NCBI GenBank assembly: GCA_041572275.1
Contig: JBFFSQ010000004.1
Location: 1 to 36,037 of the forward strand
DNA from: Gammaproteobacteria bacterium
GTDB taxonomy: Bacteria > Pseudomonadota > Gammaproteobacteria > SZUA-229
Direction: 5' to 3'
Length of the DNA stretch: 36,037 nucleotides
The stretch's first letter is position 1, and the number at the start of each line of letters is the position of its first letter. The translations under genes and the position numbers were made by a program. The notes beneath the pieces were generated by a model that did not search any database, was not told the origin of the DNA, and saw only the letters and a program-made list of their open reading frames with translations. This document shows positions 11,278-32,272 of the stretch, piece by piece.

Positions 11278-11805
11278 CTATTGATTGAAACGTCCAATGC
11301 TATCCAATATTTCCTGTTCGGCTTCCTCTACACCCACCCAGCTCTCAACCTTAACCCATTTACCGGACTCCAGTGCCTTGTACTGCTCAAAGAAGTGGGT
11401 GATCTGCCCCAGAATACCGTCATGCAGATCAAAGGGTGATTTCACATCATCATACAGCTTGGTCAGTTGATGAACCGGAACCGCCAGAATCTTATGATCC
11501 TCACCGGCCTCATCAATCATCTTCAACATTCCCACTGGTCGACAACGGATCACCGAACCACTGATCAGAGGAACCGGGGTCACTACTAACACATCGACCG
11601 GATCACCATCCTCTGACAAGGTGTGAGGCATAAACCCATAATTACAGGGATAAAACATCGCCGTACCCATGAAACGATCCACGGTCAGCGTACCACTGTC
11701 TTTATCCACTTCATATTTTACCGGCGAACCATGGGAGGGTATTTCAATTACGACATTAATATCATGAGGAACGTCTTCTCCCAGGGGGAGGTTATCAAGG
11801 TTCAT
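11278..11805 (-). CDS. ppa: Soluble inorganic pyrophosphatase (family I)
   Basis: VKYEVDK, YPCNYGF, DGDPVDV signature, [10 protein letters not shown]. Confidence 0.97.
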
Positions 11806-11981
11806 AGCATTCTTCTTTCTTTAAAAATCCACACAATTACATGAAGTCAGTCTGGGCAGACCCAGGAAACACGCTGATTATATCAACAACTGTGCAGAGA
11901 ATACTCGACATTATCTGAGCATTGATTACAATCCAGAAAACCTACGAACTGGTTCTGGACATTTTAGGGGAAACTTCAGCC

Positions 11982-13340
11982 ATGAGAATCGTTTTATTAG
12001 GAGCACCCGGCTCCGGCAAAGGCACACAGGCAAAACTGCTTGTTGAAAAATATAATGTACCTCAGATCTCCACTGGCGATCTGCTTCGCGCAGCGGTGAC
12101 AGCACAAACCCCACTGGGCAGACAGGCCAAAGCGATTATGGATGCCGGTCAGCTGGTACCCAATGAAATTGTCCTTGGCATGATCCGCGAACGCCTGAAC
12201 AATCCGGATGCCCGAAATGGCTTCATCCTTGATGGTTTCCCTCGCAACGTTGAGCAGGCTGAAGAACTCAATACTCTGCTCAGCAACATGGACAAACCCA
12301 TCGAAAAAGCGATTCTCATTGATGTCGACTTTGATGTCCTCATGCAGCGTCTCACCGGTCGACTATCCTGTGAGAAGTGTGGCGCCGTCTACAACACCTT
12401 CACCAACCCACCGGCTCTGGAAGATGAATGTGATGAATGTGGCAGTGATCTACACCACCGCTCTGATGACAATGAAGAAACCATCGGTAAACGTCTACGT
12501 GTCTATGAACAGCAAACACAGCCTGTGGCTGATTATTACAAGGCACAGAACAAGCTTGCCAGTATTGATGGCATGGGCGACATCAACGATATTTTCAAGG
12601 CAATAAAAGTCGCACTGCAAACACCTTCATCTGCCTTGCCCGTCAAAAAGACACCGGCACCCCTGCCGATTGTAAAGCAGGTTGAAGCTGAAGTTGCCGC
12701 TGCAGAAACCAAACCTGCACCCGAAAAGCCTGCCGAAACGAAAGCGGAAGCCCCAAAACCGGCCCCAGCTAAGACTGAAGCTGCACCGACACCCACTGTC
12801 GCCAAAACAGTAGAAAAACCAGCACCGACAAAGGCCCCGGCCAGTAAGCCTGCTGCCGCGAAAAAACCCGACGTGGAGAAAAAGGCCGCGGCTCAAAAAC
12901 CCACTACAGCTAAAAAAGCAGCAGTGAAAAAGGCCACTACTAAAAAGCCTGCCGCCGCCAAAAAAGCGGCCGTGAAAAAAGAAGCTGCTAAGAAACCTGC
13001 TGCTGCCAAAAAAGCAGCCGTGAAAAAAACTGCTGCTAAAAAGCCTGTCTCCGCCAAAAAAGCGGCCGTAAAAAAAGCCGTCGCCAAGAAACCAGCTGTT
13101 GCAAAAAAAGCAGCTGCGAAAAAAGCCAGGACAACAGCTAGCACCAACCCCATGCAGCAACTACGTGACCAGCTCAAAGCCATGCAGGACGAGCTCAAAC
13201 AAGTCAATGCTGAACTGAAACAGGCTGAAAGCCGCAATCAGGCACTGTTATCGGTGGAGAATCAGAAAGATGGCTTACGTAGCCGCTTCTCCAGTCAATG
13301 GGAAAAAGATCTGATGAAAATGCTGAAAAAGATTAAATAA
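11982..13340 (+). CDS. adk: Adenylate kinase (long Zn-lid type) with C-terminal Pro/Ala/Lys-rich histone-H1-like tail and coiled coil
   Basis: GAPGSGKGT P-loop, ISTGDLLR, GFILDGFPR, lid CEKC...CDEC and RSDD. Start set at ATG 11982, downstream of the SD-like AGGGGA. About 240 extra residues follow the core. Confidence 0.95.
   Translation: MRIVLLGAPGSGKGTQAKLLVEKYNVPQISTGDLLRAAVTAQTPLGRQAKAIMDAGQLVPNEIVLGMIRERLNNPDARNGFILDGFPRNVEQAEELNTLLSNMDKPIEKAILIDVDFDVLMQRLTGRLSCEKCGAVYNTFTNPPALEDECDECGSDLHHRSDDNEETIGKRLRVYEQQTQPVADYYKAQNKLASIDGMGDINDIFKAIKVALQTPSSALPVKKTPAPLPIVKQVEAEVAAAETKPAPEKPAETKAEAPKPAPAKTEAAPTPTVAKTVEKPAPTKAPASKPAAAKKPDVEKKAAAQKPTTAKKAAVKKATTKKPAAAKKAAVKKEAAKKPAAAKKAAVKKTAAKKPVSAKKAAVKKAVAKKPAVAKKAAAKKARTTASTNPMQQLRDQLKAMQDELKQVNAELKQAESRNQALLSVENQKDGLRSRFSSQWEKDLMKMLKKIK
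12894..13133 (+). repeat. Five tandem 48-bp coding repeats (16-aa unit, consensus KKPAAAKKAAVKKxxx) inside the adk tail
   Basis: Units start at 12894, 12942, 12990, 13038 and 13086: QKPTTAKKAAVKKATT / KKPAAAKKAAVKKEAA / KKPAAAKKAAVKKTAA / KKPVSAKKAAVKKAVA / KKPAVAKKAAAKKART. Confidence 0.9.
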
Positions 13341-13374: not shown

Positions 13375-13404
13375 AAAAAAGGCCGGGACATCCCGGCCTT
13401 TTTT
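13375..13404. terminator. Bidirectional intrinsic terminator between convergent adk and thioredoxin
   Basis: AAAAAA-GGCCGGGA-CA-TCCCGGCC-TTTTTT perfect inverted repeat, giving U-tracts on both strands. Confidence 0.9.
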
Positions 13405-13495: not shown

Positions 13496-13882
13496 TTAGG
13501 AACTGGCGTTAGCCTGTTCAGCAGCCTGTGCCTCAGCAATTTCTGCACGGACTTTGTCCATATCCAGCGTTTTGATCTGACCTATCATGTCATCTAGTTG
13601 TGGCCCTGGAACCATGCCGGCTTCAGCAAAGATAATAATCTGTTCACGGAAGACCATCAGGGTGGGGATTGAACGAATCTGAAAATGGGCAGCTATTGCC
13701 TGCTCTTCTTCAGTGTTGATCTTGCCAAAGACAATATCAGGGTGTTTTTCTGATACTTCTTCGTAAATTGGACCAAATGACTTACAGGGACCGCACCAGG
13801 GCGCCCAAAAATCAATCAGAACGATATCGTTCTCATTTACTGTGGACTCAAGATTTTGCTCGTTCAGTTCGATAGTTGCCAC
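13496..13882 (-). CDS. Thioredoxin
   Basis: DFWAPWCGPCK active site and IRSIPT cis-Pro loop. Start reassigned to GTG at 13882, preceded by AGGAG. Confidence 0.92.
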   Translation of the reverse strand: MATIELNEQNLESTVNENDIVLIDFWAPWCGPCKSFGPIYEEVSEKHPDIVFGKINTEEEQAIAAHFQIRSIPTLMVFREQIIIFAEAGMVPGPQLDDMIGQIKTLDMDKVRAEIAEAQAAEQANASS

Positions 13883-13976
13883 ATTCTTCTCCTGTTGTGA
13901 GTTTTCAGGAATACTCCTGTCAAACTCGGAGTATACAGTATTACTAAATACTAATATATGGCCGTAAGCCGGGTTT

Positions 13977-15767
13977 TCAACCCTGGCGCACTCCATAGAG
14001 TTGACGATACAGACCGTCTCGATTCACCAGCTCGTTATGACTGCCTTCGTCAATGACTTTTCCGCCATCGAACACATAGACCCGATCTGCCTGTTTCACA
14101 GCACTCAGTCGATGAGCGATAATTAGAGTCGTTCGGTTACGTAAGAAGCCCTGCAATGCCTGGTGGAGCTGATATTCAGTCTCGGCATCCAGGGCAGATG
14201 TCGCCTCATCAAGTATCACTATTTTAGGATCCATCAACACCATTCGCGCGACCGCCAGGCGCTGACGTTGGCCACCAGACAAACGCACACCGTTGCGCCC
14301 CACGATGGTATCCAGACCTTCAGGCATATCCAAGATTACCGACTTAAGCTGGGCTATTTCCAGCGCCTGCCACAGGGACGCCTCATCGATATCACGTCCC
14401 AAACAAAGATTATTCCGTACGCTGTCATTGAATAGCGCCGGATGCTGCAATACCGTCGCCACATTTTCGCGCACCACATCCAGTCCAATCTCTGTCACCG
14501 GCACCTCATCAAAATACAGTTGCCCAGATGCAGGTGGATAAAGCCCGAGAATTACCTGTACCAAGGTCGATTTACCACCACCACTGGCACCTACCAGGGC
14601 AATTTTTTCACCGGCCTGAATGGTTAGCGAAACATCATCCAGCACGGGATCACCGGGAGTATAGGCAAAGTGGATATGCTCAAGACGCATACCCACGGTG
14701 TGTTGATGTTCAAAGGGATTCTGTCTATTGGGGTACTGGGGTTCCTGTTTCAGGTGCAGCAAGCGATTAATCCGACCTAATGCGGCATTGGCCGAAAAAT
14801 AGCTATACTGGATCGACAAAATTTCCTGGACAGGCGTCATCATAAACCACAGATAGGCATAGACGGCAAACATCTGGCCGATACTGAGACTGGAAAATAC
14901 CACCATCAACATACTCACGGCCCGAAACATCTCAAAGCCCATCAGAAATACAAAGAATGACAGTTTATTGGCCGCATCACTTTTCCAGCTAAACGCAGCA
15001 GAATGGTGCTTGATACCCCGGGCCCGGTCGATCACCCGTAACAGATAATGACGTTCCCGGTTACTGGCACGGATTTCCTGTATACCGTCCAGAGTTTCAC
15101 TCAAGGATTGCTGAAACAGCTCAAACGCCGAATTTTCCTTTTTTTTCAGCTGTTTAACTTTCTTACCTAGCACCGTAGTGAAATAAATCACCAGCGGGTT
15201 CATCACCAGAATAAACAGGCCCAGTGGCCAGTGGATCAATAACAGTATCACCGCCACACCAGTGATCGTCAGCACAGCTACGATAAATTTACTCAAGGCC
15301 GTACCGATAAATATATCGATGGCTTCAACATCAGTAACCATATGTGATGCCACCGTGCCACTACCCAGGGTTTCATACTCCGCCATGGAGACTCGTTGTA
15401 GCCGCTCCAGCAGGCCTCTGCGAATGCGATAGGTAATTTCCTTGGCCACCTGGGTAAAGGTACGTGTCTGCCAGACAGCCAGGGTGATGGCCAGCGCCCG
15501 TAACAACATGGTTACCAGCATCATGACAAGAATATACAGTACGGCACTATGCCAGCTGTCAGGAAACACCGCATTCATCGTTGCCACCAGCGTCCCTGGC
15601 TGCTGTAGCAACACCTCATCAACTAACAAAGGCATCAGCAGGGGAACTGGCGCACTCACCAGTGCCGCAAAAATCGCAATGATATTGGCATACCACAGGG
15701 TTCGCTTATGCTGCAGTGCAATCTGTCGAATATAAGACCAGCTATATTGGAGTGTATGTTCAGACAT
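13977..15767 (-). CDS. ABC exporter, fused permease/ATP-binding protein
   Basis: N-terminal TM domain, Walker A GASGGGKST, signature LSGGQ, Walker B ILDEATSALD, switch IAHRLS. Confidence 0.93.
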   Translation of the reverse strand: MSEHTLQYSWSYIRQIALQHKRTLWYANIIAIFAALVSAPVPLLMPLLVDEVLLQQPGTLVATMNAVFPDSWHSAVLYILVMMLVTMLLRALAITLAVWQTRTFTQVAKEITYRIRRGLLERLQRVSMAEYETLGSGTVASHMVTDVEAIDIFIGTALSKFIVAVLTITGVAVILLLIHWPLGLFILVMNPLVIYFTTVLGKKVKQLKKKENSAFELFQQSLSETLDGIQEIRASNRERHYLLRVIDRARGIKHHSAAFSWKSDAANKLSFFVFLMGFEMFRAVSMLMVVFSSLSIGQMFAVYAYLWFMMTPVQEILSIQYSYFSANAALGRINRLLHLKQEPQYPNRQNPFEHQHTVGMRLEHIHFAYTPGDPVLDDVSLTIQAGEKIALVGASGGGKSTLVQVILGLYPPASGQLYFDEVPVTEIGLDVVRENVATVLQHPALFNDSVRNNLCLGRDIDEASLWQALEIAQLKSVILDMPEGLDTIVGRNGVRLSGGQRQRLAVARMVLMDPKIVILDEATSALDAETEYQLHQALQGFLRNRTTLIIAHRLSAVKQADRVYVFDGGKVIDEGSHNELVNRDGLYRQLYGVRQG

Positions 15768-21024: not shown

Positions 21025-22230
21025 ATGCCCGTTAAACTCATTCAGATTACTGACACCCACATCCACGACCTGCCGACAACCGAGTTTTACCAGGGCAGGC
21101 CCGATCAATCGCTACAACGCATCGTCCGTCATGCCAAACACTGTGCTCCCGATATTGATGCGGTGATTGTCACCGGTGACCTCACCCATGATGGTGGCGC
21201 ACAGGCCTGCCAACATTTACAAACCCTGCTGGCCGATTTTGACTGTCCGGTCTATGTTACCCTCGGTAACCATGATGTCGGCACAACCATCCGGCAGCAT
21301 CTGCTAAACCAGCAGATCAGTCAGCCGACTTCGGTAACAATTGGACACTGGCAACTCCTGTTTGCCGACAGCCATGTTGATCATCAGGTTAGCGGCTGGG
21401 TAGACCCTGCACGTCTTGATGAGATCAATCAGCATCTACTCCACTCGCCACAACCGGCGATGCTGTTCACCCATCACCCACCGGTCAATATCCAGTGTCA
21501 GTGGCTGGATCGTATAGGCCTCGATAACGGTGATGTTCTCGTGCAACAGCTGCTACCCTTCAAACAGCTTAAAGCCATTGTGTTTGGTCATATTCACCAG
21601 GCCTTCTCTGCTAATATCGAACACCTGCAGCTGCTGGGCACGCCCTCGTCCTGTATCCAGTTCAAGCCCAACAGTAAGAACTTTGCACTGGATACCCGTG
21701 ATCCGGGCTACCGGATCATCGAACTGGAAGACAATGGTGACTGGCATAGCCAGGTCCAGCGTTGTCCGAACCAGCTAAAGAAAATTATCTCCGGTGGACA
21801 GACTGGCGTTGACCGCGCCGCACTGGACATCGCCATCGAACTGGCCATTCCCCATGGCGGCTGGTGTCCACAGGGACGCCGAGCCGTTGATGGTGTCATC
21901 GATGAAAAATACCAACTCATGGAAACTGAATCAGCAGATTATCCTGTGCGTACCGAATGGAATGTCCGCGATGCAAATGGCACACTGGTGCTCAGCTGGG
22001 GTCAGCCAGATGGTGGCACCGCCCTCACTATCCGCATCGCTGAACGTCTGCAAAAACCCGTGCTGGTGATCAACCTCCTTGACCCTGTCGACGCCGAGAG
22101 CTTCTGGCAATGGTTACAACAACATAATATTGAAATTCTCAACATAGCCGGCCCCCGACATAGCAAAGCCGAAGCTCTCACCTCTACAGCTCAATCCTGC
22201 CTGCTAAAATTACTCTGCCACAACGCTTGA
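21025..22230 (+). CDS. CpdA/Icc-like metallophosphoesterase fused to a C-terminal cpYpsA-type SLOG ('putative molybdenum carrier') domain
   Basis: N-terminal DTH, TGDL, GNHD, HHPP, FGHIH, PSSCIQF and PGYR motifs. From 21781: KIISGGQTGVDRAALD, GGWCP, RTEWNVRD, GGTALT and LNIAGPR. One open frame. Confidence 0.88.
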   Translation: MPVKLIQITDTHIHDLPTTEFYQGRPDQSLQRIVRHAKHCAPDIDAVIVTGDLTHDGGAQACQHLQTLLADFDCPVYVTLGNHDVGTTIRQHLLNQQISQPTSVTIGHWQLLFADSHVDHQVSGWVDPARLDEINQHLLHSPQPAMLFTHHPPVNIQCQWLDRIGLDNGDVLVQQLLPFKQLKAIVFGHIHQAFSANIEHLQLLGTPSSCIQFKPNSKNFALDTRDPGYRIIELEDNGDWHSQVQRCPNQLKKIISGGQTGVDRAALDIAIELAIPHGGWCPQGRRAVDGVIDEKYQLMETESADYPVRTEWNVRDANGTLVLSWGQPDGGTALTIRIAERLQKPVLVINLLDPVDAESFWQWLQQHNIEILNIAGPRHSKAEALTSTAQSCLLKLLCHNA

Positions 22231-25238: not shown

Positions 25239-26093
25239 ATGGAATCCCTTTCTGATCAGCAAACACTGGATGAGGTCGAGAAAACCATTTTGCTGGTAGA
25301 TGATGAACCCAATATCATCAAAGCACTTAAACGGCTGTTGCGTCGAGACGGCTATACCATACTCACAGCCACTGATGGACGCACTGGGCTAGACATGCTC
25401 GCGCATAACAAGGTTGGCGTTATCCTGTCGGACCAGCGCATGCCTGAAATGTCCGGTGTCGAATTTCTCAGCCAGGTCAAAGAACTGTACCCGGATACGG
25501 TGCGAATGGTCCTGAGTGGTTACACCGACCTGAATACAGTCACTGATGCAATCAACCAGGGGGCGATTTACAAGTTCCTAACCAAACCCTGGGAAGATGG
25601 GCTGCTAAGAGCAAACATCAAAGATGCCTTCCAGCATTTCAGACTGGTCAGAGAAAACAGACGCCTGCATGCAGAACTTAAGAAACTCAATCAGCTCCTG
25701 GAAAATCGTCTTGATGAACAGAATCGTCTATCCAAGATTGAGTTGCACATGCTCCAGCTAAACCAGGCTGTTCTCGATAACCAGCCGGTAGCAGTTCTTG
25801 GTATCGGGGATGATCAAATGATTGCTGTCGCCAATAATCGAGCCCATGAACTTCTAAATGTTCAAGCCGGCAGCCTGCTCACGGCCTTTGCCAACCAGGT
25901 CTTGCCACAGGAGATCCAGGATGCCTACACCAGGATTGACGATGACACTGAGGAAGTCTGCACAGTCATTCGTTTGAACAAAATTGATTACCAGATCATA
26001 TGCCGACGATTAACAGCTCCTTCAGGCCCACAGGGCTTAGTCATCACACTATTCCCCCGCTACGCAAGCCAAATCAGGCAACTGGACACATAA
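25239..26093 (+). CDS. Response regulator: receiver + coiled coil + degenerate PAS-like domain
   Basis: LLVDDE, SDQRMP (phospho-Asp), LSGYT and TKPW. C-terminal VLDNQPVAVLGIGDDQMIAVANNRA is PAS-like. No HTH. Confidence 0.85.
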   Translation: MESLSDQQTLDEVEKTILLVDDEPNIIKALKRLLRRDGYTILTATDGRTGLDMLAHNKVGVILSDQRMPEMSGVEFLSQVKELYPDTVRMVLSGYTDLNTVTDAINQGAIYKFLTKPWEDGLLRANIKDAFQHFRLVRENRRLHAELKKLNQLLENRLDEQNRLSKIELHMLQLNQAVLDNQPVAVLGIGDDQMIAVANNRAHELLNVQAGSLLTAFANQVLPQEIQDAYTRIDDDTEEVCTVIRLNKIDYQIICRRLTAPSGPQGLVITLFPRYASQIRQLDT

Positions 26094-26094
26094 C

Positions 26095-26412
26095 ATGAAA
26101 CATAAAATAACAATTGAGTTGCCATCGGCCATTGAAGGCATGCAACTGGCCACTGATGCCATCGACGATAAAGGCGTTTGCCTCATAGTTGCCGGTGCCA
26201 CTCTGACAGAAGCATCAATACAAGGTCTAGCCAAGCGCAACATTAAGAGCATTGAAATTTATCAACAGGAACAGCTCACACCCAAGCAGGCACAACAACG
26301 TCGTGCAGAAATCAAAACCCAACTTGACTATTGCTTCAGCAAAACACAAAGCAAGCCATTAATGAGCGATTTAAAACAAATTTTTTACAATTACAGAACT
26401 CTGGACCTTTAA
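26095..26412 (+). CDS. Small hypothetical protein carrying a GMxLAxD...G..L...G..LT...I..L module
   Basis: 105-aa ORF packed 1 nt from both neighbours. The motif EGMQLATDAIDDKGVCLIVAGATLTEASIQGL resembles accessory modules of HD-GYP/HDOD proteins. Confidence 0.75.
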   Translation: MKHKITIELPSAIEGMQLATDAIDDKGVCLIVAGATLTEASIQGLAKRNIKSIEIYQQEQLTPKQAQQRRAEIKTQLDYCFSKTQSKPLMSDLKQIFYNYRTLDL

Positions 26413-26413
26413 C

Positions 26414-27250
26414 ATGCTCAGCCAACAGGAACTCGAACAGGGCATCAAAGACATCCCCCCTCTATCACCTGCCATAGTTGATATTCTCAACATGTTGAAT
26501 GCAGATACTGATGTGGATTTCAGGCTACTGGAGAAAAAACTCCTTCAAGATCCAGGACTGACTGGGCGCGTGCTGGCACTGGCAAACTCACCTTTCTTCG
26601 GTATGGCGGGAGAAGTGAGCCGCGTTAAAGATGCCTGCCTGATTTTAGGGATTAATGCCATCCGAAACCTGGTCATCTCGACTGCCATGATGAAACAATT
26701 TTCATCAAGCTCGGCCAGCAACCTGGATATACAAGGACTCTGGCGTCATTCTATTGCCAGCGCCTCTGCGGCTATAAGCCTGTCACGACACACCAAAATT
26801 GACCAGGACCAGGCATTTACCGCCGCCCTGCTCCATGACATCGGTAAAATGGTGCTCGATATACACTTTCCAGAACATTACCTGCAGGTCATTAAATATC
26901 AACAGGAACAGCAATGCCTCATTCGTGAAGCTGAAGAACACATACTGGGCTGTGACCATAGCGAAGTCGGTGCTCTGGTGGCCCAGAAATGGAAATTACC
27001 CAACGAAATCATTAACACCATCAGAGACCATCATGACCGCGCCGATCCAGAAACAACCGTATTATCAGACCTTGTTAATTTATCCGACATTGTCAGCCGT
27101 GGCCTCGCCCTCGGTAATCCAGGCGATGGTTTTATACCTGAGTTAAACGTGAATATACCGCTCAGACTAAATATTAGCTTAGAGGACATTGCAGACAGCC
27201 TGGCCGAAATTGAAGCACTGTATGACAGCTTCGTCAGCCTGATTGAATAA
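26414..27250 (+). CDS. HDOD domain protein
   Basis: IPPLS, QDPGLTGRVLALANSPFFG, LWRHS, AALLHDIGK, DHSEVG..VAQKWKLP and HH motifs. Confidence 0.92.
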   Translation: MLSQQELEQGIKDIPPLSPAIVDILNMLNADTDVDFRLLEKKLLQDPGLTGRVLALANSPFFGMAGEVSRVKDACLILGINAIRNLVISTAMMKQFSSSSASNLDIQGLWRHSIASASAAISLSRHTKIDQDQAFTAALLHDIGKMVLDIHFPEHYLQVIKYQQEQQCLIREAEEHILGCDHSEVGALVAQKWKLPNEIINTIRDHHDRADPETTVLSDLVNLSDIVSRGLALGNPGDGFIPELNVNIPLRLNISLEDIADSLAEIEALYDSFVSLIE

Positions 27251-27357
27251 GAGAAAATATTGACCTATACATTAATTAATGATGTGTGCATAAACCCGAT
27301 CAGTTAGGCCGTAATCATGATGATATCTTCCACACTCCTAATCAGGCGAACTCGAAC

Positions 27358-28923
27358 ATGAACACCCCGGATATCACACAATGCATGAGTAATTTAAAAG
27401 CGGCAATTAACAGCATGCATCACGCCGGCACTTCAGCGCCAGAGTCAATCGCTGAACAGATTGATGCTGAACTAGATAGTTTAACCAGGGCTGTAGATGA
27501 TGCGTGTAAACAATCTAAACTGGAATCCTCGTCACTAAGCCGAGCCAATGTCAGCATGGTCTTACTTATCGATGCCATGGCTGAATGGCAAACCGCCGAC
27601 ATCGAACGCCAGAAGTCAACTGATAGCCAAAACCTTGAGCTGTTTAAACCAGCACTGGTCGATTTAATGAATGCCACAGATGCACAATTCTCAGTGCTTA
27701 AATTCTATTCCGACAATCACGAAACAAACGGTTTCTATGGCGTTGACACCAGCACAGGCACAACCAAGACTATTACTGACGAATCGGAATTAAGAGGCCT
27801 TGTGCAGTTACATCTGAACTCAACGGTAGTCGAGAAAATTAACGATCTAAGCCACAATGCTCGCACCTGTGATCGGATCGATAGTCTTCAAGGTATTCAT
27901 AACCTGCTCAGCCTGCCACTCATATCAGGCCCCACCATCAAAGGGAAAATATTCATTGCCAATAAAAAAAATGGCCAGGTATTTGATGAGAATGATGTGA
28001 TTATTTGCCGACTATTTAAAACGGCCATATCCCATATCATGGAACGTGACGACCTGCTCATTCAGATCAACCAGGAAAAGGAAGAGCACAAATTATTAAC
28101 CGAAAAAATACACAAGGCTCAAAACCAACTCCTGCAATCTGAAAAAATGGCTTCTATTGGCTCCTTGGCGGCTGGTGTCGCCCATGAAATAAATAACCCG
28201 GTGGGATACATCAACTCGAATATCAGCAGCCTTAAAAATTATATTGCCGATGTATTTCAGATCCTGAATAAATACAATGAACTCGAACCCTCACTAAGCA
28301 ACCAACAAATAAAAGACATAAAAGAACTAAAAGACCAATTAGATATTGATTTCATAAAAGACGACATTATCGAATTGGTCAGCGAATCAGAAGAAGGCGT
28401 AAAGCGAGTCAAGCAAATTGTCCAGGACCTCAAAGACTTCTCTCATGTCGATGAAGCTGAATGGCAATGGACAAATATACATAACGGTATAAACAGCACA
28501 TTAAATATTGCGCATAACGAAACCAAATACAAAGCTGAGGTTATCAAGGAATTTGGCGACATACCCGACATAGAATGCATTATTTCACAACTTAATCAGG
28601 TATTCATGAACCTGATCGTTAATGCCGCCCAGGCAATAGATGACAAAGGCACCATTACCATAAAAACAGAAGCCATCGACACAAACAGGATTCGAATTAC
28701 AATCTCAGACACTGGCAAAGGAATATCAGAAGACAATCTAAATCGAGTATTCGATCCATTCTACACCACCAAACCAGTAGGTAAGGGCACCGGCCTTGGC
28801 CTTTCACTATCTTTTAGCATCATAGAGAAACATCATGGCACAATTGACTTAACCAGCCAGGTAGGCAAAGGAACCATATTCACCATCGAACTTCCCATCC
28901 AGCAACCCGAACCTGCTGCCTGA
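27358..28923 (+). CDS. Cytoplasmic GAF sensor histidine kinase
   Basis: GAF-like segment, H-box SEKMASIG.LAAGVAHEINNP, N-box QVFMNLIVNA, DTGKG, FDPFYTTK and GTGLGL. No TM segment. Start uncertain (GTG 27286 or ATG 27358). Confidence 0.9.
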   Translation: MNTPDITQCMSNLKAAINSMHHAGTSAPESIAEQIDAELDSLTRAVDDACKQSKLESSSLSRANVSMVLLIDAMAEWQTADIERQKSTDSQNLELFKPALVDLMNATDAQFSVLKFYSDNHETNGFYGVDTSTGTTKTITDESELRGLVQLHLNSTVVEKINDLSHNARTCDRIDSLQGIHNLLSLPLISGPTIKGKIFIANKKNGQVFDENDVIICRLFKTAISHIMERDDLLIQINQEKEEHKLLTEKIHKAQNQLLQSEKMASIGSLAAGVAHEINNPVGYINSNISSLKNYIADVFQILNKYNELEPSLSNQQIKDIKELKDQLDIDFIKDDIIELVSESEEGVKRVKQIVQDLKDFSHVDEAEWQWTNIHNGINSTLNIAHNETKYKAEVIKEFGDIPDIECIISQLNQVFMNLIVNAAQAIDDKGTITIKTEAIDTNRIRITISDTGKGISEDNLNRVFDPFYTTKPVGKGTGLGLSLSFSIIEKHHGTIDLTSQVGKGTIFTIELPIQQPEPAA

Positions 28924-28948
28924 CACGCACTTAAACACATGAACCATC

Positions 28949-30265
28949 ATGACCACAAACAACCCAGCATCTACCATTGAAAAAGCCAGCTTGCTTTTCG
29001 TCGACGATGAAAAAAATATATTATCGTCATTAAAACGACTGTTCCGCAGCGAAGGTTACACTATACACCTGGCCAACAGCGGAGCCGAAGGATTGGACAT
29101 CCTTACAACACATAAAATCAATCTGGTCATATCAGACATGCGCATGCCGGAGATGAATGGTGCCGAATTTCTGGAAAAAGTCGCTACCACATGGCCTGCC
29201 GTAACTCGAATACTACTAACCGGATATTCTGAAGTATCCTCAACTATTGACGCCGTAAACAAAGGCAACATCTACAAATACATTAGCAAGCCATGGGAAG
29301 ACAATGACATTAAATTAACTGTCAAGCACGCACTCGAAGCCCAGGCAATTGAAATAGAACGCGACAAGTTACTCGCGCTAACCCAACGTCAAAATGAAGA
29401 ACTTAAAGACTTCAATAGCAAACTAGAAGACATGGTCAAGACACGCACTGCAGAACTCGACCAGACCATGGCCATGCTGGAACGTGCTTATGAGACACTA
29501 AAGGATAGCTACTCGACCACTATACAAGTTTTCTCCAACCTCATTGAACTAAGAGAAGATAATCTTCAAAGCCATTCTAAACAGGTCGCCCAACAGGCCT
29601 ATGATCTGGCATTAACCGTGGGCATGACTGACGACACTGCAAAACAGATTTCTTTTGCCGGACTGTTACGAAATATTGGAAAAATCGGATTCGCAGACAG
29701 CATAAACAGGAAATCTGTTGATGACATGACTCCTACCGAAGCAATTCAGTACAAAAAACACCCGATCCTAGGCTCAAGTATTCTTATGGCCTTAGAACCA
29801 CTGCAAACTGCCGCCTCACTTATCCATGGCTACTGTGAACAATATGATGGCCATGGCTACCCCGATCAACTAGCTGGTGAGAACATCCCCCTTGGCTGCC
29901 GAATCCTCAACGTGGTTAGCGATTTTCATGCATTACAGACGGGCACTCTCATACCAAAAAAACTAGATACCGAGCAAGCAAGAGATTATTTATTATCACA
30001 ACGCGGCAAACGCTACGACCCCAACATTGTCAATGCCTTTATCAATGAACTCATCAAAAATGAACAGCATGACAACATACAAAAGGAAACACTGATTTCT
30101 GCCCATCAGCTCAAAATCAACATGAAACTAGCAAGAGACCTTGTAACCAAAGATGGCATTCTATTGCTATCTGAAGGCCACTTGCTTGGTGAACATATGA
30201 TTAAACAGATAAATAAACTTGAAAAATCACTGGATGAAACACTACAAATTTATATTCACTCTTAA
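28949..30265 (+). CDS. Response regulator with degenerate HD-GYP domain
   Basis: Receiver motifs FVDDE, SDMRMP and SKPW. HD-GYP-like region with LLRNIGKIG in place of LLHDIGK, KKHP, and GYCEQYDGHGYP. Confidence 0.88.
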   Translation: MTTNNPASTIEKASLLFVDDEKNILSSLKRLFRSEGYTIHLANSGAEGLDILTTHKINLVISDMRMPEMNGAEFLEKVATTWPAVTRILLTGYSEVSSTIDAVNKGNIYKYISKPWEDNDIKLTVKHALEAQAIEIERDKLLALTQRQNEELKDFNSKLEDMVKTRTAELDQTMAMLERAYETLKDSYSTTIQVFSNLIELREDNLQSHSKQVAQQAYDLALTVGMTDDTAKQISFAGLLRNIGKIGFADSINRKSVDDMTPTEAIQYKKHPILGSSILMALEPLQTAASLIHGYCEQYDGHGYPDQLAGENIPLGCRILNVVSDFHALQTGTLIPKKLDTEQARDYLLSQRGKRYDPNIVNAFINELIKNEQHDNIQKETLISAHQLKINMKLARDLVTKDGILLLSEGHLLGEHMIKQINKLEKSLDETLQIYIHS

Positions 30266-30279
30266 TATTGAGAACCACC

Positions 30280-30819
30280 ATGTACCAAATAATGTTAGTA
30301 GATGATGAAGAAAACATTCTTAAAGCATTAAAACGTGTGCTCGCCGTCAAAAAAGACTGGAACATAGAAGCTTTTACCTGCGCAGAAGAAGCACTTGCAC
30401 GTGCAACCAAAAAAACATTTGATCTCTATTTATCCGACTATCGAATGCCCAAAATCGATGGTATCAGCTTCCTCACTGCCACCAAAAGCATACATCCTAA
30501 CGCTATGAGAATTGTCCTTAGCGGCTATACAGATTATGACGCTCTCATGGGCGCTATTAATCAAGCCGAAATATTTAGATTCATTACCAAACCCTGGAAT
30601 GACGAGTACCTGATAAATGCAATAACTCAGGCACTGACCTATAAAGACACCTTAATTGAAAATCAGCGACTAGCTGACCAGGTCAGAGCCCAACAAGTTC
30701 AACTTAATAAACAAAAACAAATATTTGAAGACTATAAATCTAAACACCCTGACCTATTTAATGTTGAGTGGGCTGCCGATGGCTCAATAATTATTAACGA
30801 TGATACAGATACAGACTAA
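30280..30819 (+). CDS. Receiver-domain protein with C-terminal coiled coil
   Basis: LVDDE, SDYRMP, LSGYT and TKPW motifs. Short helical tail ending VEWAADGSIII. Start set at ATG 30280. Confidence 0.88.
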   Translation: MYQIMLVDDEENILKALKRVLAVKKDWNIEAFTCAEEALARATKKTFDLYLSDYRMPKIDGISFLTATKSIHPNAMRIVLSGYTDYDALMGAINQAEIFRFITKPWNDEYLINAITQALTYKDTLIENQRLADQVRAQQVQLNKQKQIFEDYKSKHPDLFNVEWAADGSIIINDDTDTD

Positions 30820-30898
30820 GCTGCCATGGTAGTTTCTACCTAAGTCAAAACAAATTCACAATAACTCTTATCACAAGTTTTTCTATGAGATCTTAATA

Positions 30899-32272
30899 TT
30901 GACAGTGAAAATCAACACCACATGGATCTATAACCTTTACCGACTCGGACAGAAGGCCGCTTCTGCTCATGCTAAAGAATCAGCAAGAGAAGATTTCCTA
31001 AGATATATCATTTCAGCCTTTAATGCTGACTCAGGATCATTAGCGCAATCATTGGCCGATGACAAAACTCTCATGATTGTTGCTGGCATTGACATCCCAA
31101 GACAGGCTATTGGTAGCACAATCAAATTCGGCTCAGCCGTTCTTGGCTGGGTTGCAGAAAACAAAAAACCCTTATTGATTAATGGCAAAATATCCAGTGA
31201 TAGCGAATTCAGTAAGCAATTCAAGAACAAACAAGCCAACAAGGAAAAATCATCCATGTGCTGGCCTTTGTTGATCGACAAACAAGTAGTAGGAGTCATC
31301 AGCATCAATAAAAACATGGACAATGGACAATTCACTCAAGATGATCTCAATCGCGGCAATAACTTAATGCACTTCGTCGCACTCGCTGTAGAAACGGCAC
31401 GATCCCATGATCAAACCGAACAATTACTTCAAGATCAAATCAAGCTAAATAAACGGCTTGAAGAGGCACAAAATCAGCTATTACAATCAGAAAAAATGGC
31501 CTCAATTGGTCAATTAGCTGCCGGCGTTGCTCATGAAATCAACAACCCTGTCGGCTACATAAACTCTAATCTTTCAACTCTTGCCAGCTATATCAACAGC
31601 ATATCCAAAATGCTACAGTTGTATGCTGACACTGCTGATCCTGTACTTAAACAAACACCTGAGCATTACAAAAAAATAAAAGATCACAAAAATGATATTG
31701 ACCTTGAATTCATTATGGAAGACCTGCAATCACTCATTGCAGAATCCATGGAAGGCGTTACCCGTGTTAAAAAAATTGTTCAGGACCTAAAGGACTTTTC
31801 CCACGTAGATGAATCAGAATTTAATTGGGCTGATATCCATGGTGGCATCGATAGCACGCTCAACATAGCCCATAATGAAATCAAATATAAAGCCAACGTT
31901 ATCAAAGAATATGGTGACATACCGGAAGTTGAGTGCATTGCATCTCAAATTAACCAGGTATTTATGAATATTCTGGTTAATGCTGCCCATGCTATTGAAG
32001 ACCAAGGAACCATTACCATAAAAACTGGCCGCGGTGATGACGACAATATCTGGATTATTATCCGTGATACTGGATCAGGCATACCCGAGAAGAATCTAAA
32101 GCGAATATTCGATCCTTTTTTTACATCTAAACCGGTTGGACACGGCACCGGCCTTGGGCTGTCCTTATCGTATAGCATTATCGAGAAACATAAAGGACGA
32201 ATAGAAGTTGACAGTACACTTGGGCAAGGTACTGAATTTACAATCTGGCTGCCTATTCAACAACCATCATAA
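30899..32272 (+). CDS. Cytoplasmic GAF sensor histidine kinase (paralog of 27358-28923)
   Basis: GAF segment (GSAVLGWVAENKKPLLI...SMCWPL...VGVISINK), H-box AHEINNP, and N, G1, F, G2 boxes. TTG start. Confidence 0.9.
   Translation: MTVKINTTWIYNLYRLGQKAASAHAKESAREDFLRYIISAFNADSGSLAQSLADDKTLMIVAGIDIPRQAIGSTIKFGSAVLGWVAENKKPLLINGKISSDSEFSKQFKNKQANKEKSSMCWPLLIDKQVVGVISINKNMDNGQFTQDDLNRGNNLMHFVALAVETARSHDQTEQLLQDQIKLNKRLEEAQNQLLQSEKMASIGQLAAGVAHEINNPVGYINSNLSTLASYINSISKMLQLYADTADPVLKQTPEHYKKIKDHKNDIDLEFIMEDLQSLIAESMEGVTRVKKIVQDLKDFSHVDESEFNWADIHGGIDSTLNIAHNEIKYKANVIKEYGDIPEVECIASQINQVFMNILVNAAHAIEDQGTITIKTGRGDDDNIWIIIRDTGSGIPEKNLKRIFDPFFTSKPVGHGTGLGLSLSYSIIEKHKGRIEVDSTLGQGTEFTIWLPIQQPS

Follow-up and report, generated by a model that had tools for sequence, protein, structure and literature searches.

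We analysed a 36,037-nucleotide stretch of DNA (the window) from a gammaproteobacterium of the lineage SZUA-229 (contig JBFFSQ010000004.1, positions 1 to 36,037) and examined one of its genes, a long adenylate kinase (Adk) gene at 11982..13340 on the forward strand that encodes 452 amino acids plus a stop codon, with no internal stop. The encoded protein joins an Adk core to a further 239 residues, which comprise a Pro-rich linker, a polycationic Lys/Ala repeat block, and a conserved terminal helix. The best reading of this architecture is an active Adk leashed to the nucleoid, to which we assign a probability of about one half. Three elements are new here: a helix domain that has no name, its presence both on an enzyme and on free basic proteins, and the repeated appearance of polycationic tails among Adks; Lys-tailed DNA enzymes (Ku, topoisomerase I), the H1-like tethers AlgP and PhaF, and the tailed Adk family NF010381 were already known.

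Judged by its sequence, the protein is an enzyme with an intact active site. The core (residues 1–213, 11982..12620, forward strand), with its P-loop, nucleoside monophosphate-binding region and LID, is recognized by Pfam ADK (PF00406, residues 5–190, E = 3.7e-57, 193 bits against a cut-off of 26.8), by NCBIfam NF001380 (residues 1–213, 303 bits against 251) and by TIGR01351 (261 bits against 168). The P-loop GAPGSGKGT occupies residues 7–15, and the Pfam ADK_lid match spans residues 127–162 and contains four cysteines (C130, C133, C150, and C153; 12369..12440, forward strand), the arrangement of a zinc-binding type of LID; we take zinc binding by such four-Cys LIDs to be established for Bacillus-type Adks. 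Across 78 orthologues all four cysteines are invariant, as are K13, R36, R88, R123, R127, R160, D162, D163, and R171, which we take to be the catalytic residues of the Adk family. The invariance of the P-loop lysine, the Arg/Asp set and the LID cysteines argues that the protein is under selection as an enzyme. AlphaFold2, run with the alignment of these 78 orthologues, modeled the core in the Adk fold with a predicted local distance difference test score (pLDDT) of ∼90, and solved zinc-LID Adks match it over its whole length (best match 5g3y_A, E = 8e-71). The Bacillus/Geobacillus-type Adks among these (1zin, 1p3j, and the reconstructed 5g3y; E = 8e-71 to 2e-66) share the P-loop, the catalytic arginines and the four-Cys LID but, unlike the window protein, stop at ∼217 residues, and beyond residue 213 none of the 60 solved chains listed gave a match.

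From the gene content of the assembly, the tailed Adk is an additional paralogue: a plain adk of 212 residues (45% identity), itself with a four-Cys LID, is present in the genome as well; the initial annotation had proposed looking for exactly such a gene. PF00406 matched only two proteins in the genome, the tailed Adk and this plain Adk, which is of a family-specific type. A quick tree of 61 Adk cores, with SH-aLRT (Shimodaira–Hasegawa-like approximate likelihood ratio test) support only, resolved three groups: a tailed clade that takes in all 24 sequences of the family, a family-specific plain clade (support 99), and a third type that clusters (support 99) with the only adk found in other families of the class and so looks like the canonical gammaproteobacterial gene. 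At least 10 family genomes carry this third type, which was not found in the present one, an assembly of 306 contigs rated 100% complete. In one genome (G031, locus L162) the Adk core forms the last 217 residues of a 638-residue open frame, which could be an N-terminal fusion or could merely lack a stop between two genes.

Beyond the core, the tail carries a net charge of +39 and divides into three segments. The linker (residues 214–289, 76 residues, 12621..12848, forward strand) has a net charge of +4 and consists largely of Ala (24%), Pro (21%), Lys (16%), Thr (12%), and Glu (11%). The polycationic block that follows (residues 290–385, 96 residues, 12849..13136, forward strand) has a net charge of +31, with 34 Lys and Arg against 3 Asp and Glu, and is 34% Lys and 36% Ala. 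At the DNA level, Tandem Repeats Finder described it as 5.8 copies of a 48-nucleotide period (12846–13127), equivalent to six units of 16 residues. Two of these units contain an exact KKPAAAKKAAVKK, three are variants of KKPAAAKKAAVKK differing at 1–3 residues, and the first is degenerate. The five repeats counted in the initial annotation are therefore present if variants are allowed, and a sixth, degenerate unit precedes them; the overall anatomy that it described, of an Adk core, linker, basic repeats and heptad helix, was borne out by Pfam and NCBIfam, by composition, by a heptad scan and by AlphaFold2. In the AlphaFold2 model of the full protein, residues 214–389 (∼176 residues) lack secondary structure (pLDDT 41–54 overall and about 44–54 in the linker), and residues 390–451 form one helix (pLDDT 85–94).

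This C-terminal helical module (residues 390–452, 13149..13337, forward strand), delimited by BLASTP, a profile and AlphaFold2, begins with a heptad helix over residues 391–422, in which the a positions are M, L, L, L, N and the d positions L, M, V, A, L. An amphipathic stretch follows, ending in F..xWEKD..K.LKKIK. None of 200 shuffles of the tail equaled the heptad score of the helix, and AlphaFold2 returned the same single helix from the isolated C-terminus (mean pLDDT 90; 85–97 over the two models). The heptad pattern and the single-helix model are compatible with self-association of the helix; a two-copy complex prediction from the helix alignment (A1, described below) scored 0.02 against a mark of 0.42 in a run made without controls, and counts neither for nor against pairing.

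The same helix occurs on free-standing proteins of the same organism. A whole-genome search identified P0002, a stand-alone protein of 159 residues encoded on genome contig C1 (49948-50424, minus strand; L102 2449-2925), in which N-terminal Lys/Ala repeats precede the helix; residues 394–450 of the Adk align with residues 91–147 of P0002 without gaps (19 of 57 identical, E = 1e-7 by BLASTP). A second stand-alone paralogue of 143 residues lies on contig C47 (L128 2012-2440, minus strand). Neither basic protein matched a Pfam or NCBIfam family. In searches of genomes that sample their respective groups, as do all the genome comparisons below, orthologues of P0002 (used as the query) were recovered from 21 of the 24 family genomes and from none of the 16 other families of the class. 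By their sequences, these two proteins are candidates for a lineage-specific family of nucleoid-associated proteins. A feature look-up with P0002 returned a best value of 0.91 to a cluster automatically named “DNA topoisomerase I family protein” that has no common Pfam family; this recognition lies below the reliable range and is a lead only.

An alignment of 30 such modules over 63 columns (A1) contains two invariant positions (W51 and K61) and three that are at least 90% conserved (R29, K40, and K53), and the window protein has all five of these residues. When the isolated 70-residue C-terminus was compared with Pfam and NCBIfam, the only hits were sub-threshold coiled-coil look-alikes (DUF3958, YabA, and DMPK_coil). 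By these sequence criteria, the terminal helix is a rare domain of its own that neither Pfam nor NCBIfam covers. When 1.84 billion protein representatives were scored with a profile of the module, 83 matched at E≤0.001 and 12 at E≤1e-10; 78 of the 83 are shorter than 260 residues. We inspected 15 of the matches individually. Seven are basic proteins of small or medium size that carry the helix close to or at the C-terminus (in four, the ends appear to be wrongly extended or joined), and four are Adk fusions or a fragment of one. Two matches, P0044 and P0045, carry four or five RGRP-type, AT-hook-like repeats ahead of the helix, and two others, P0046 and P0071, were set aside as false matches to unrelated repeat proteins. 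No enzyme other than Adk was fused to the module among the 15. A search with the C-terminus alone, as the initial annotation had suggested, thus identified a conserved domain whose partners are small basic sequences, AT-hook-like repeats, and Adks.

The fusion of core and tail is real and old. Logan contigs from three other studies span the junction and match it without a difference or gap (X5 12495-12811, X6 12542-12947, and X7 12579-12761), and no stop or frameshift, the observation that the initial annotation had named as fatal to its proposal, was seen after the core. Long Adks, which it had mentioned for related bacteria, occur in all 24 genomes of the same family as open frames of 327–484 residues, of which we extracted 23 complete orthologues and one cut by a contig end. 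Public protein collections contain many further examples, and the best 120 clusters listed are all Adks of 332–468 residues; the named entries come from hydrothermal-vent metagenomes, a tubeworm endosymbiont and metagenome-assembled genomes of Gammaproteobacteria, and bear the name “adenylate kinase” only.

All 23 complete orthologues have tails with a positive net charge (+15 to +71) and a length of 114–248 residues. The manner in which the tail evolves is best seen in a comparison with a strain variant whose core is 98% identical. Residues 1–213 are identical at 210 positions, with 3 substitutions and no gap positions; the middle segment (residues 214–390) has 142 identical positions, 28 substitutions and 13 gap positions; and the helix (residues 391–452) has 61 identical positions, 1 substitution and no gaps. 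Thus, the middle keeps its composition rather than its sequence or length, and the helix is constrained like the catalytic core. A strict four-heptad scan recovered the helix in 18 of the 23 complete orthologues. In one other (L006) it was picked up by the module's hidden Markov model (HMM) and missed by the scan, two (L018 and L168) scored slightly below the line, and in L012 glycines interrupt the stretch and leave no scoreable heptad window.

A polycationic tail has also been joined to Adk elsewhere. NF010381 (PRK13808), a 335-position model named only “adenylate kinase,” exceeded its cut-off in 4 of the 301 phylum genomes sampled, all belonging to one other family. With 205.7 bits against a cut-off of 426, and its best stretch at residues 1–128 only, the window protein falls outside the NF010381 family. 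Like the window protein, the NF010381 Adks (284–309 residues) have a Lys/Ala-rich C-terminal tail, here of 95–120 residues with 38–49 Lys and Arg against 1–2 Asp and Glu; unlike it, they have a short Cys-free LID and lack both the Pro-rich spacer and the terminal helix. All three Adk types of our family lie at roughly the same distance from their cores, which have no specific relationship to the tailed clade, so the polycationic tail was probably fused independently. As far as these sequences indicate, the enzyme-plus-polycation design is recurrent in Adks. This recurrence, and the occurrence of the helix on Lys/Ala-rich and AT-hook-like repeat proteins, lend the tether proposal of the initial annotation some indirect backing. 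In full-text literature searches, neither a functional study of the NF010381 Adks nor any publication describing a histone-like or lysine-rich tail on an adenylate kinase came to light; histone-like symbiont proteins in Riftia proteomics were considered as a precedent and discarded, since the excerpts of PMC6918071 speak of host histones only and name no adenylate kinase.

Closer to the window protein, two other families of the class contain divergent relatives with tails, and the cores of these lie nearest the tailed clade (150–180 bits, versus 99–106 bits to the plain adk of their own genome). In genome G035 (L160) a four-Cys-LID Adk lies in a 548-residue open frame; its long tail is made of KKR(V/A)xTKK-type repeats and lacks the terminal helix. 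In genome G033 (L159 1242-2603, minus strand) a 453-residue Adk-like protein, its core again nearest the tailed clade, has a degenerate P-loop (GPPGSGRED instead of GxPGxGKGT) followed by an Asp/Glu-rich stretch and a Lys-rich tail; its sequence suggests that it may be a pseudo-enzyme that has retained its tail.

We propose that the C-terminus of the window protein is in effect a copy of a lineage-specific small basic protein, composed of Lys/Ala repeats and the conserved helix of ∼60 residues, which a flexible Pro-rich spacer would connect to the enzyme. The polycationic block would bind a cellular polyanion electrostatically, most probably chromosomal DNA in the nucleoid, and the terminal helix would form pairs, either between copies of the Adk or with its counterpart on P0002 and the 143-residue paralogue. 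The enzyme would then be held on a leash of about 170 residues, interconverting 2 ADP and ATP + AMP locally. Binding to a polyanion, the choice of DNA as target, helix-mediated assembly and local buffering of adenylates are all steps that we infer. The initial annotation had also entertained a nucleoid protein tuned by energy charge, which looks unlikely: ∼176 disordered residues separate the enzyme from the helix in the model, and conformational coupling is hard to picture across so long a spacer.

DNA is favored as the target for two reasons. First, the other carriers of the module look like nucleoid proteins, and the AT-hook-like repeats on two of them would point to DNA rather than to polyphosphate (polyP). 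Second, the best-studied bacterial H1-like tails, those of AlgP and PhaF, are DNA-binding and anchor granules to the nucleoid, as described in excerpts of PMC11894788. According to the same excerpts, AlgP of Pseudomonas aeruginosa resembles the window protein in combining disordered, H1-like Lys/Ala/Pro repeats with a predicted coiled coil. Unlike the window protein, AlgP has no enzyme domain and shows the reverse order, with the coiled coil N-terminal and the repeats (54 copies of KPAA) C-terminal. We detected no sequence homology between AlgP and the window protein. PhaF of Pseudomonas putida, as those excerpts portray it, is alike in logic, a functional head plus an H1-like basic tail that links a cargo of polyhydroxyalkanoate granules to the nucleoid; where PhaF has a phasin head, the window protein has an enzyme. 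Apart from ADK and P-loop families, no N-terminal family, phasins included, was matched when the window protein was scanned with Pfam, a result that counts against membership of the AlgP/PhaF type, not against a similar working mode. Enzymes with comparable tails include mycobacterial Ku (PAKKA repeats) and actinobacterial topoisomerase I, whose low-complexity Lys-rich C-terminal tails are said in the abstracts of PMC3553676 and PMC7398561 to modulate DNA binding or processivity. Those proteins act on DNA, whereas Adk has no nucleic-acid substrate, and hence its tail can serve only placement or assembly.

Several observations weigh against a nucleoid-bound Adk. Lys/Ala tails bind any polyanion, including DNA, RNA, polyP, and acidic lipids. 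The AT-hook argument rests on motifs read by eye, because the Pfam AT_hook model scores P0044 and P0045 below threshold (15.6 and 13.2 versus 17.4). No DNA-related gene is linked to the tailed adk, whose neighbors are ppa, trx, and cell-wall genes. The matches of the tail to Hc2 and H1-like database models appear to be compositional: PF07382 (Hc2) covers residues 240–448, a low-complexity tail, at 42 bits against a cut-off of 40 and stands in the precomputed Pfam column of 9 of the 120 best orthologue clusters, and NF038053 (histone H1-like DNA-binding, Burkholderia type) reaches 27.1 bits against a cut-off of 80. The likeness to chlamydial HctB (Hc2) raised in the initial annotation seems to hold for composition and for Lys/Ala-rich repeats, and to go no further; HctB has neither an enzyme domain nor the terminal helix module. 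Finally, the helix is patchily distributed. One orthologue (L017) runs on in Lys-rich sequence to its end with no heptad helix, and the HMM recognizes the full module with its W-containing end in 12 of the 23 complete orthologues, six of which are HMM training rows; part of the family can therefore do without the helix.

The rival that survives best is a polyP-granule tether, in which the tail binds polyP instead of, or besides, DNA, since the two targets are not mutually exclusive. In this scheme Adk would sit beside polyP kinases (PPK/PPK2), which convert polyP + AMP to ADP, and would itself turn 2 ADP into ATP + AMP, so that ATP is regenerated locally from polyP. The genome encodes one PPK1 and two PPK2, a further point that tells against a purely nucleoid role, and the inorganic pyrophosphatase gene ppa adjoins the long adk in 14 of the 20 loci examined, two of them with short pieces only. 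The excerpts of PMC11894788 place AlgP, which also binds DNA, on polyP granules, and those of PMC3163519 report that Escherichia coli overproducing PPK1 showed higher adenylate kinase activity and acquired polyP:AMP phosphotransferase activity, which PPK1 and Adk provide together. Against this rival, no ppk, ppk2 or ppx is linked to adk within the window, ppa is missing from 6 of the 20 loci, including a whole deeper subclade, and the helix-module relatives carry AT-hook-like repeats, a motif of the DNA minor groove. The tail sequence itself does not discriminate between polyP and DNA. We give a polyP tether a low probability, less than half that of the nucleoid.

Another possibility, which we consider improbable, is that the tail is no tether at all and instead drives oligomers or condensates through its helix, acts as an entropic or solubility bristle, or serves regulated degradation or a storage form. 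The ∼176 residues modeled as disordered turn over rapidly in sequence while keeping their composition, and regions of that kind typically work through bulk properties; moreover, the L159 lineage keeps its tail despite a degenerate P-loop, which hints at a role beyond catalysis. However, it is difficult to account for a net charge kept at +15 to +71 in 23 of 23 orthologues, or for the independent Lys/Ala tail of the NF010381 Adks, if the tail has no polyanionic partner, and a bristle alone needs no sequence-conserved terminal helix common to other basic proteins. Slightly less probable again is an association with RNA or the ribosome, by which the tail would bind rRNA or mRNA and hold Adk at the translation machinery: Lys/Ala-rich disordered tails generally bind RNA as well as DNA, and the tail charge of +39 is compatible with this, but the neighborhood holds no ribosomal or translation genes and none of the carriers among the 15 inspected matches has an RNA-binding domain. 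An artefact of assembly or annotation, in which a frameshift or a chimera would have merged adk with the gene of a small basic protein, might be invited by the fragmented assembly (306 contigs), the repetitive tail DNA and the existence of the tail module as a stand-alone protein, and has a negligible chance of being correct given the junction-crossing contigs of three other studies, the 23 complete long orthologues from 23 other genomes or loci, and the uniformly long public clusters.

Returning to the nucleoid as the preferred station, the data can be accommodated in a wider picture that we offer tentatively and hold well below the core proposal. A lineage of uncultured, marine, sulfur-oxidizer-like Gammaproteobacteria may have its own chromatin proteins, built from basic repeats and the terminal helix, and may have grafted this unit onto an Adk. 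Phosphotransfer would thereby be stationed on the nucleoid, or at a nucleoid–polyP interface, through pairing of the helix with the free chromatin proteins, and the NF010381 Adks would make this a recurrent bacterial solution.

The energy metabolism of bacteria is commonly pictured as taking place in a well-mixed cell. Here, a housekeeping-type soluble enzyme carries a conserved, putative polyanion anchor throughout a family, and a similar anchor arose again in another Adk lineage; tailed Adks therefore offer a concrete, testable case of spatially organized phosphotransfer in bacteria. The very basic proteins that bear the unnamed domain of ∼60 residues form a small set confined to a lineage, and are possible new nucleoid-associated proteins. 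Public annotation as “adenylate kinase” or “hypothetical protein” makes these features invisible in databases. If the proposal is true, a nucleoid-stationed adenylate kinase would be a recurrent bacterial solution and no oddity.

The tailed adk stands alone in an otherwise housekeeping region (mrdA, rodA, an mltB-like gene, rlpA, dacA, and lipAB). It is divergent from ppa (11278..11805, minus strand; Pfam Pyrophosphatase, E = 3.6e-56) and convergent with a thioredoxin gene, trx (13496..13996, minus strand; Pfam Thioredoxin, E = 4.2e-24). The long adk is flanked by mrdA in 20 of 20 loci examined, and trx is present in 15 of them. At L005 (G009) and L007 (G007), only ppa-matching pieces of ∼40–60 residues lie between mrdA and the long adk, which by their sequence may reflect gene decay.

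The open reading frame (ORF) as listed for the window (11922..13340, forward strand) opens at an upstream TTG. We judge the ATG at 11982 to be the right start because position 1 of the adk models aligns to residue 1 in the HMM matches and the orthologues all share the N-terminus MR(I/L)VLLG at this point. Sequence inspection identified a Shine-Dalgarno-like AGGGGA 10 nucleotides upstream of the ATG (11966..11971, forward strand), and a consensus scan gave a candidate sigma-70-like promoter, by pattern match alone (TCGACA, 16 nucleotides, TACAAT; 10/12; 11905..11932, forward strand). Downstream, an intrinsic-terminator-like hairpin, GGCCGGG-ACAT-CCCGGCC followed by TTTTTT, was found by inspection at 13381..13404 (forward strand). 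An A-run precedes it, and the sequence could possibly be used in both directions; it was not among the matches of a terminator pattern scan, perhaps because the A-run and T-run lengthen the stem. A single RNA-library contig of 182 nucleotides maps to the core (12351-12532) and none maps to the tail, too little to judge expression or a single transcript.

On the opposite strand, two ORFs rich in F, G, A, and C face the Lys/Ala repeat (12627-13160, minus strand, 177 residues, and 12893-13237, minus strand, 114 residues). Ten of 11 minus-strand terminator-like matches fall inside these two antisense ORFs (12627-13237), and the remaining one lies at 12531-12519. We took both the ORFs and the terminator-like matches to be shadows of the AAA/GCN-rich repeat and rejected them as features.

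Two further loci in the window stand apart from the adk region. At 21025-22230 (forward strand), a calcineurin-like metallophosphoesterase is fused to a circularly permuted YpsA SLOG domain (PF12694, E = 4e-55). A signaling cluster at 25239-32272 (forward strand) encodes a response regulator, an HDOD protein, a histidine kinase, an RR-HD-GYP-like protein (HD_5), a second response regulator, and a GAF histidine kinase, with a G+C content of 0.38–0.47, below that of the rest of the window.

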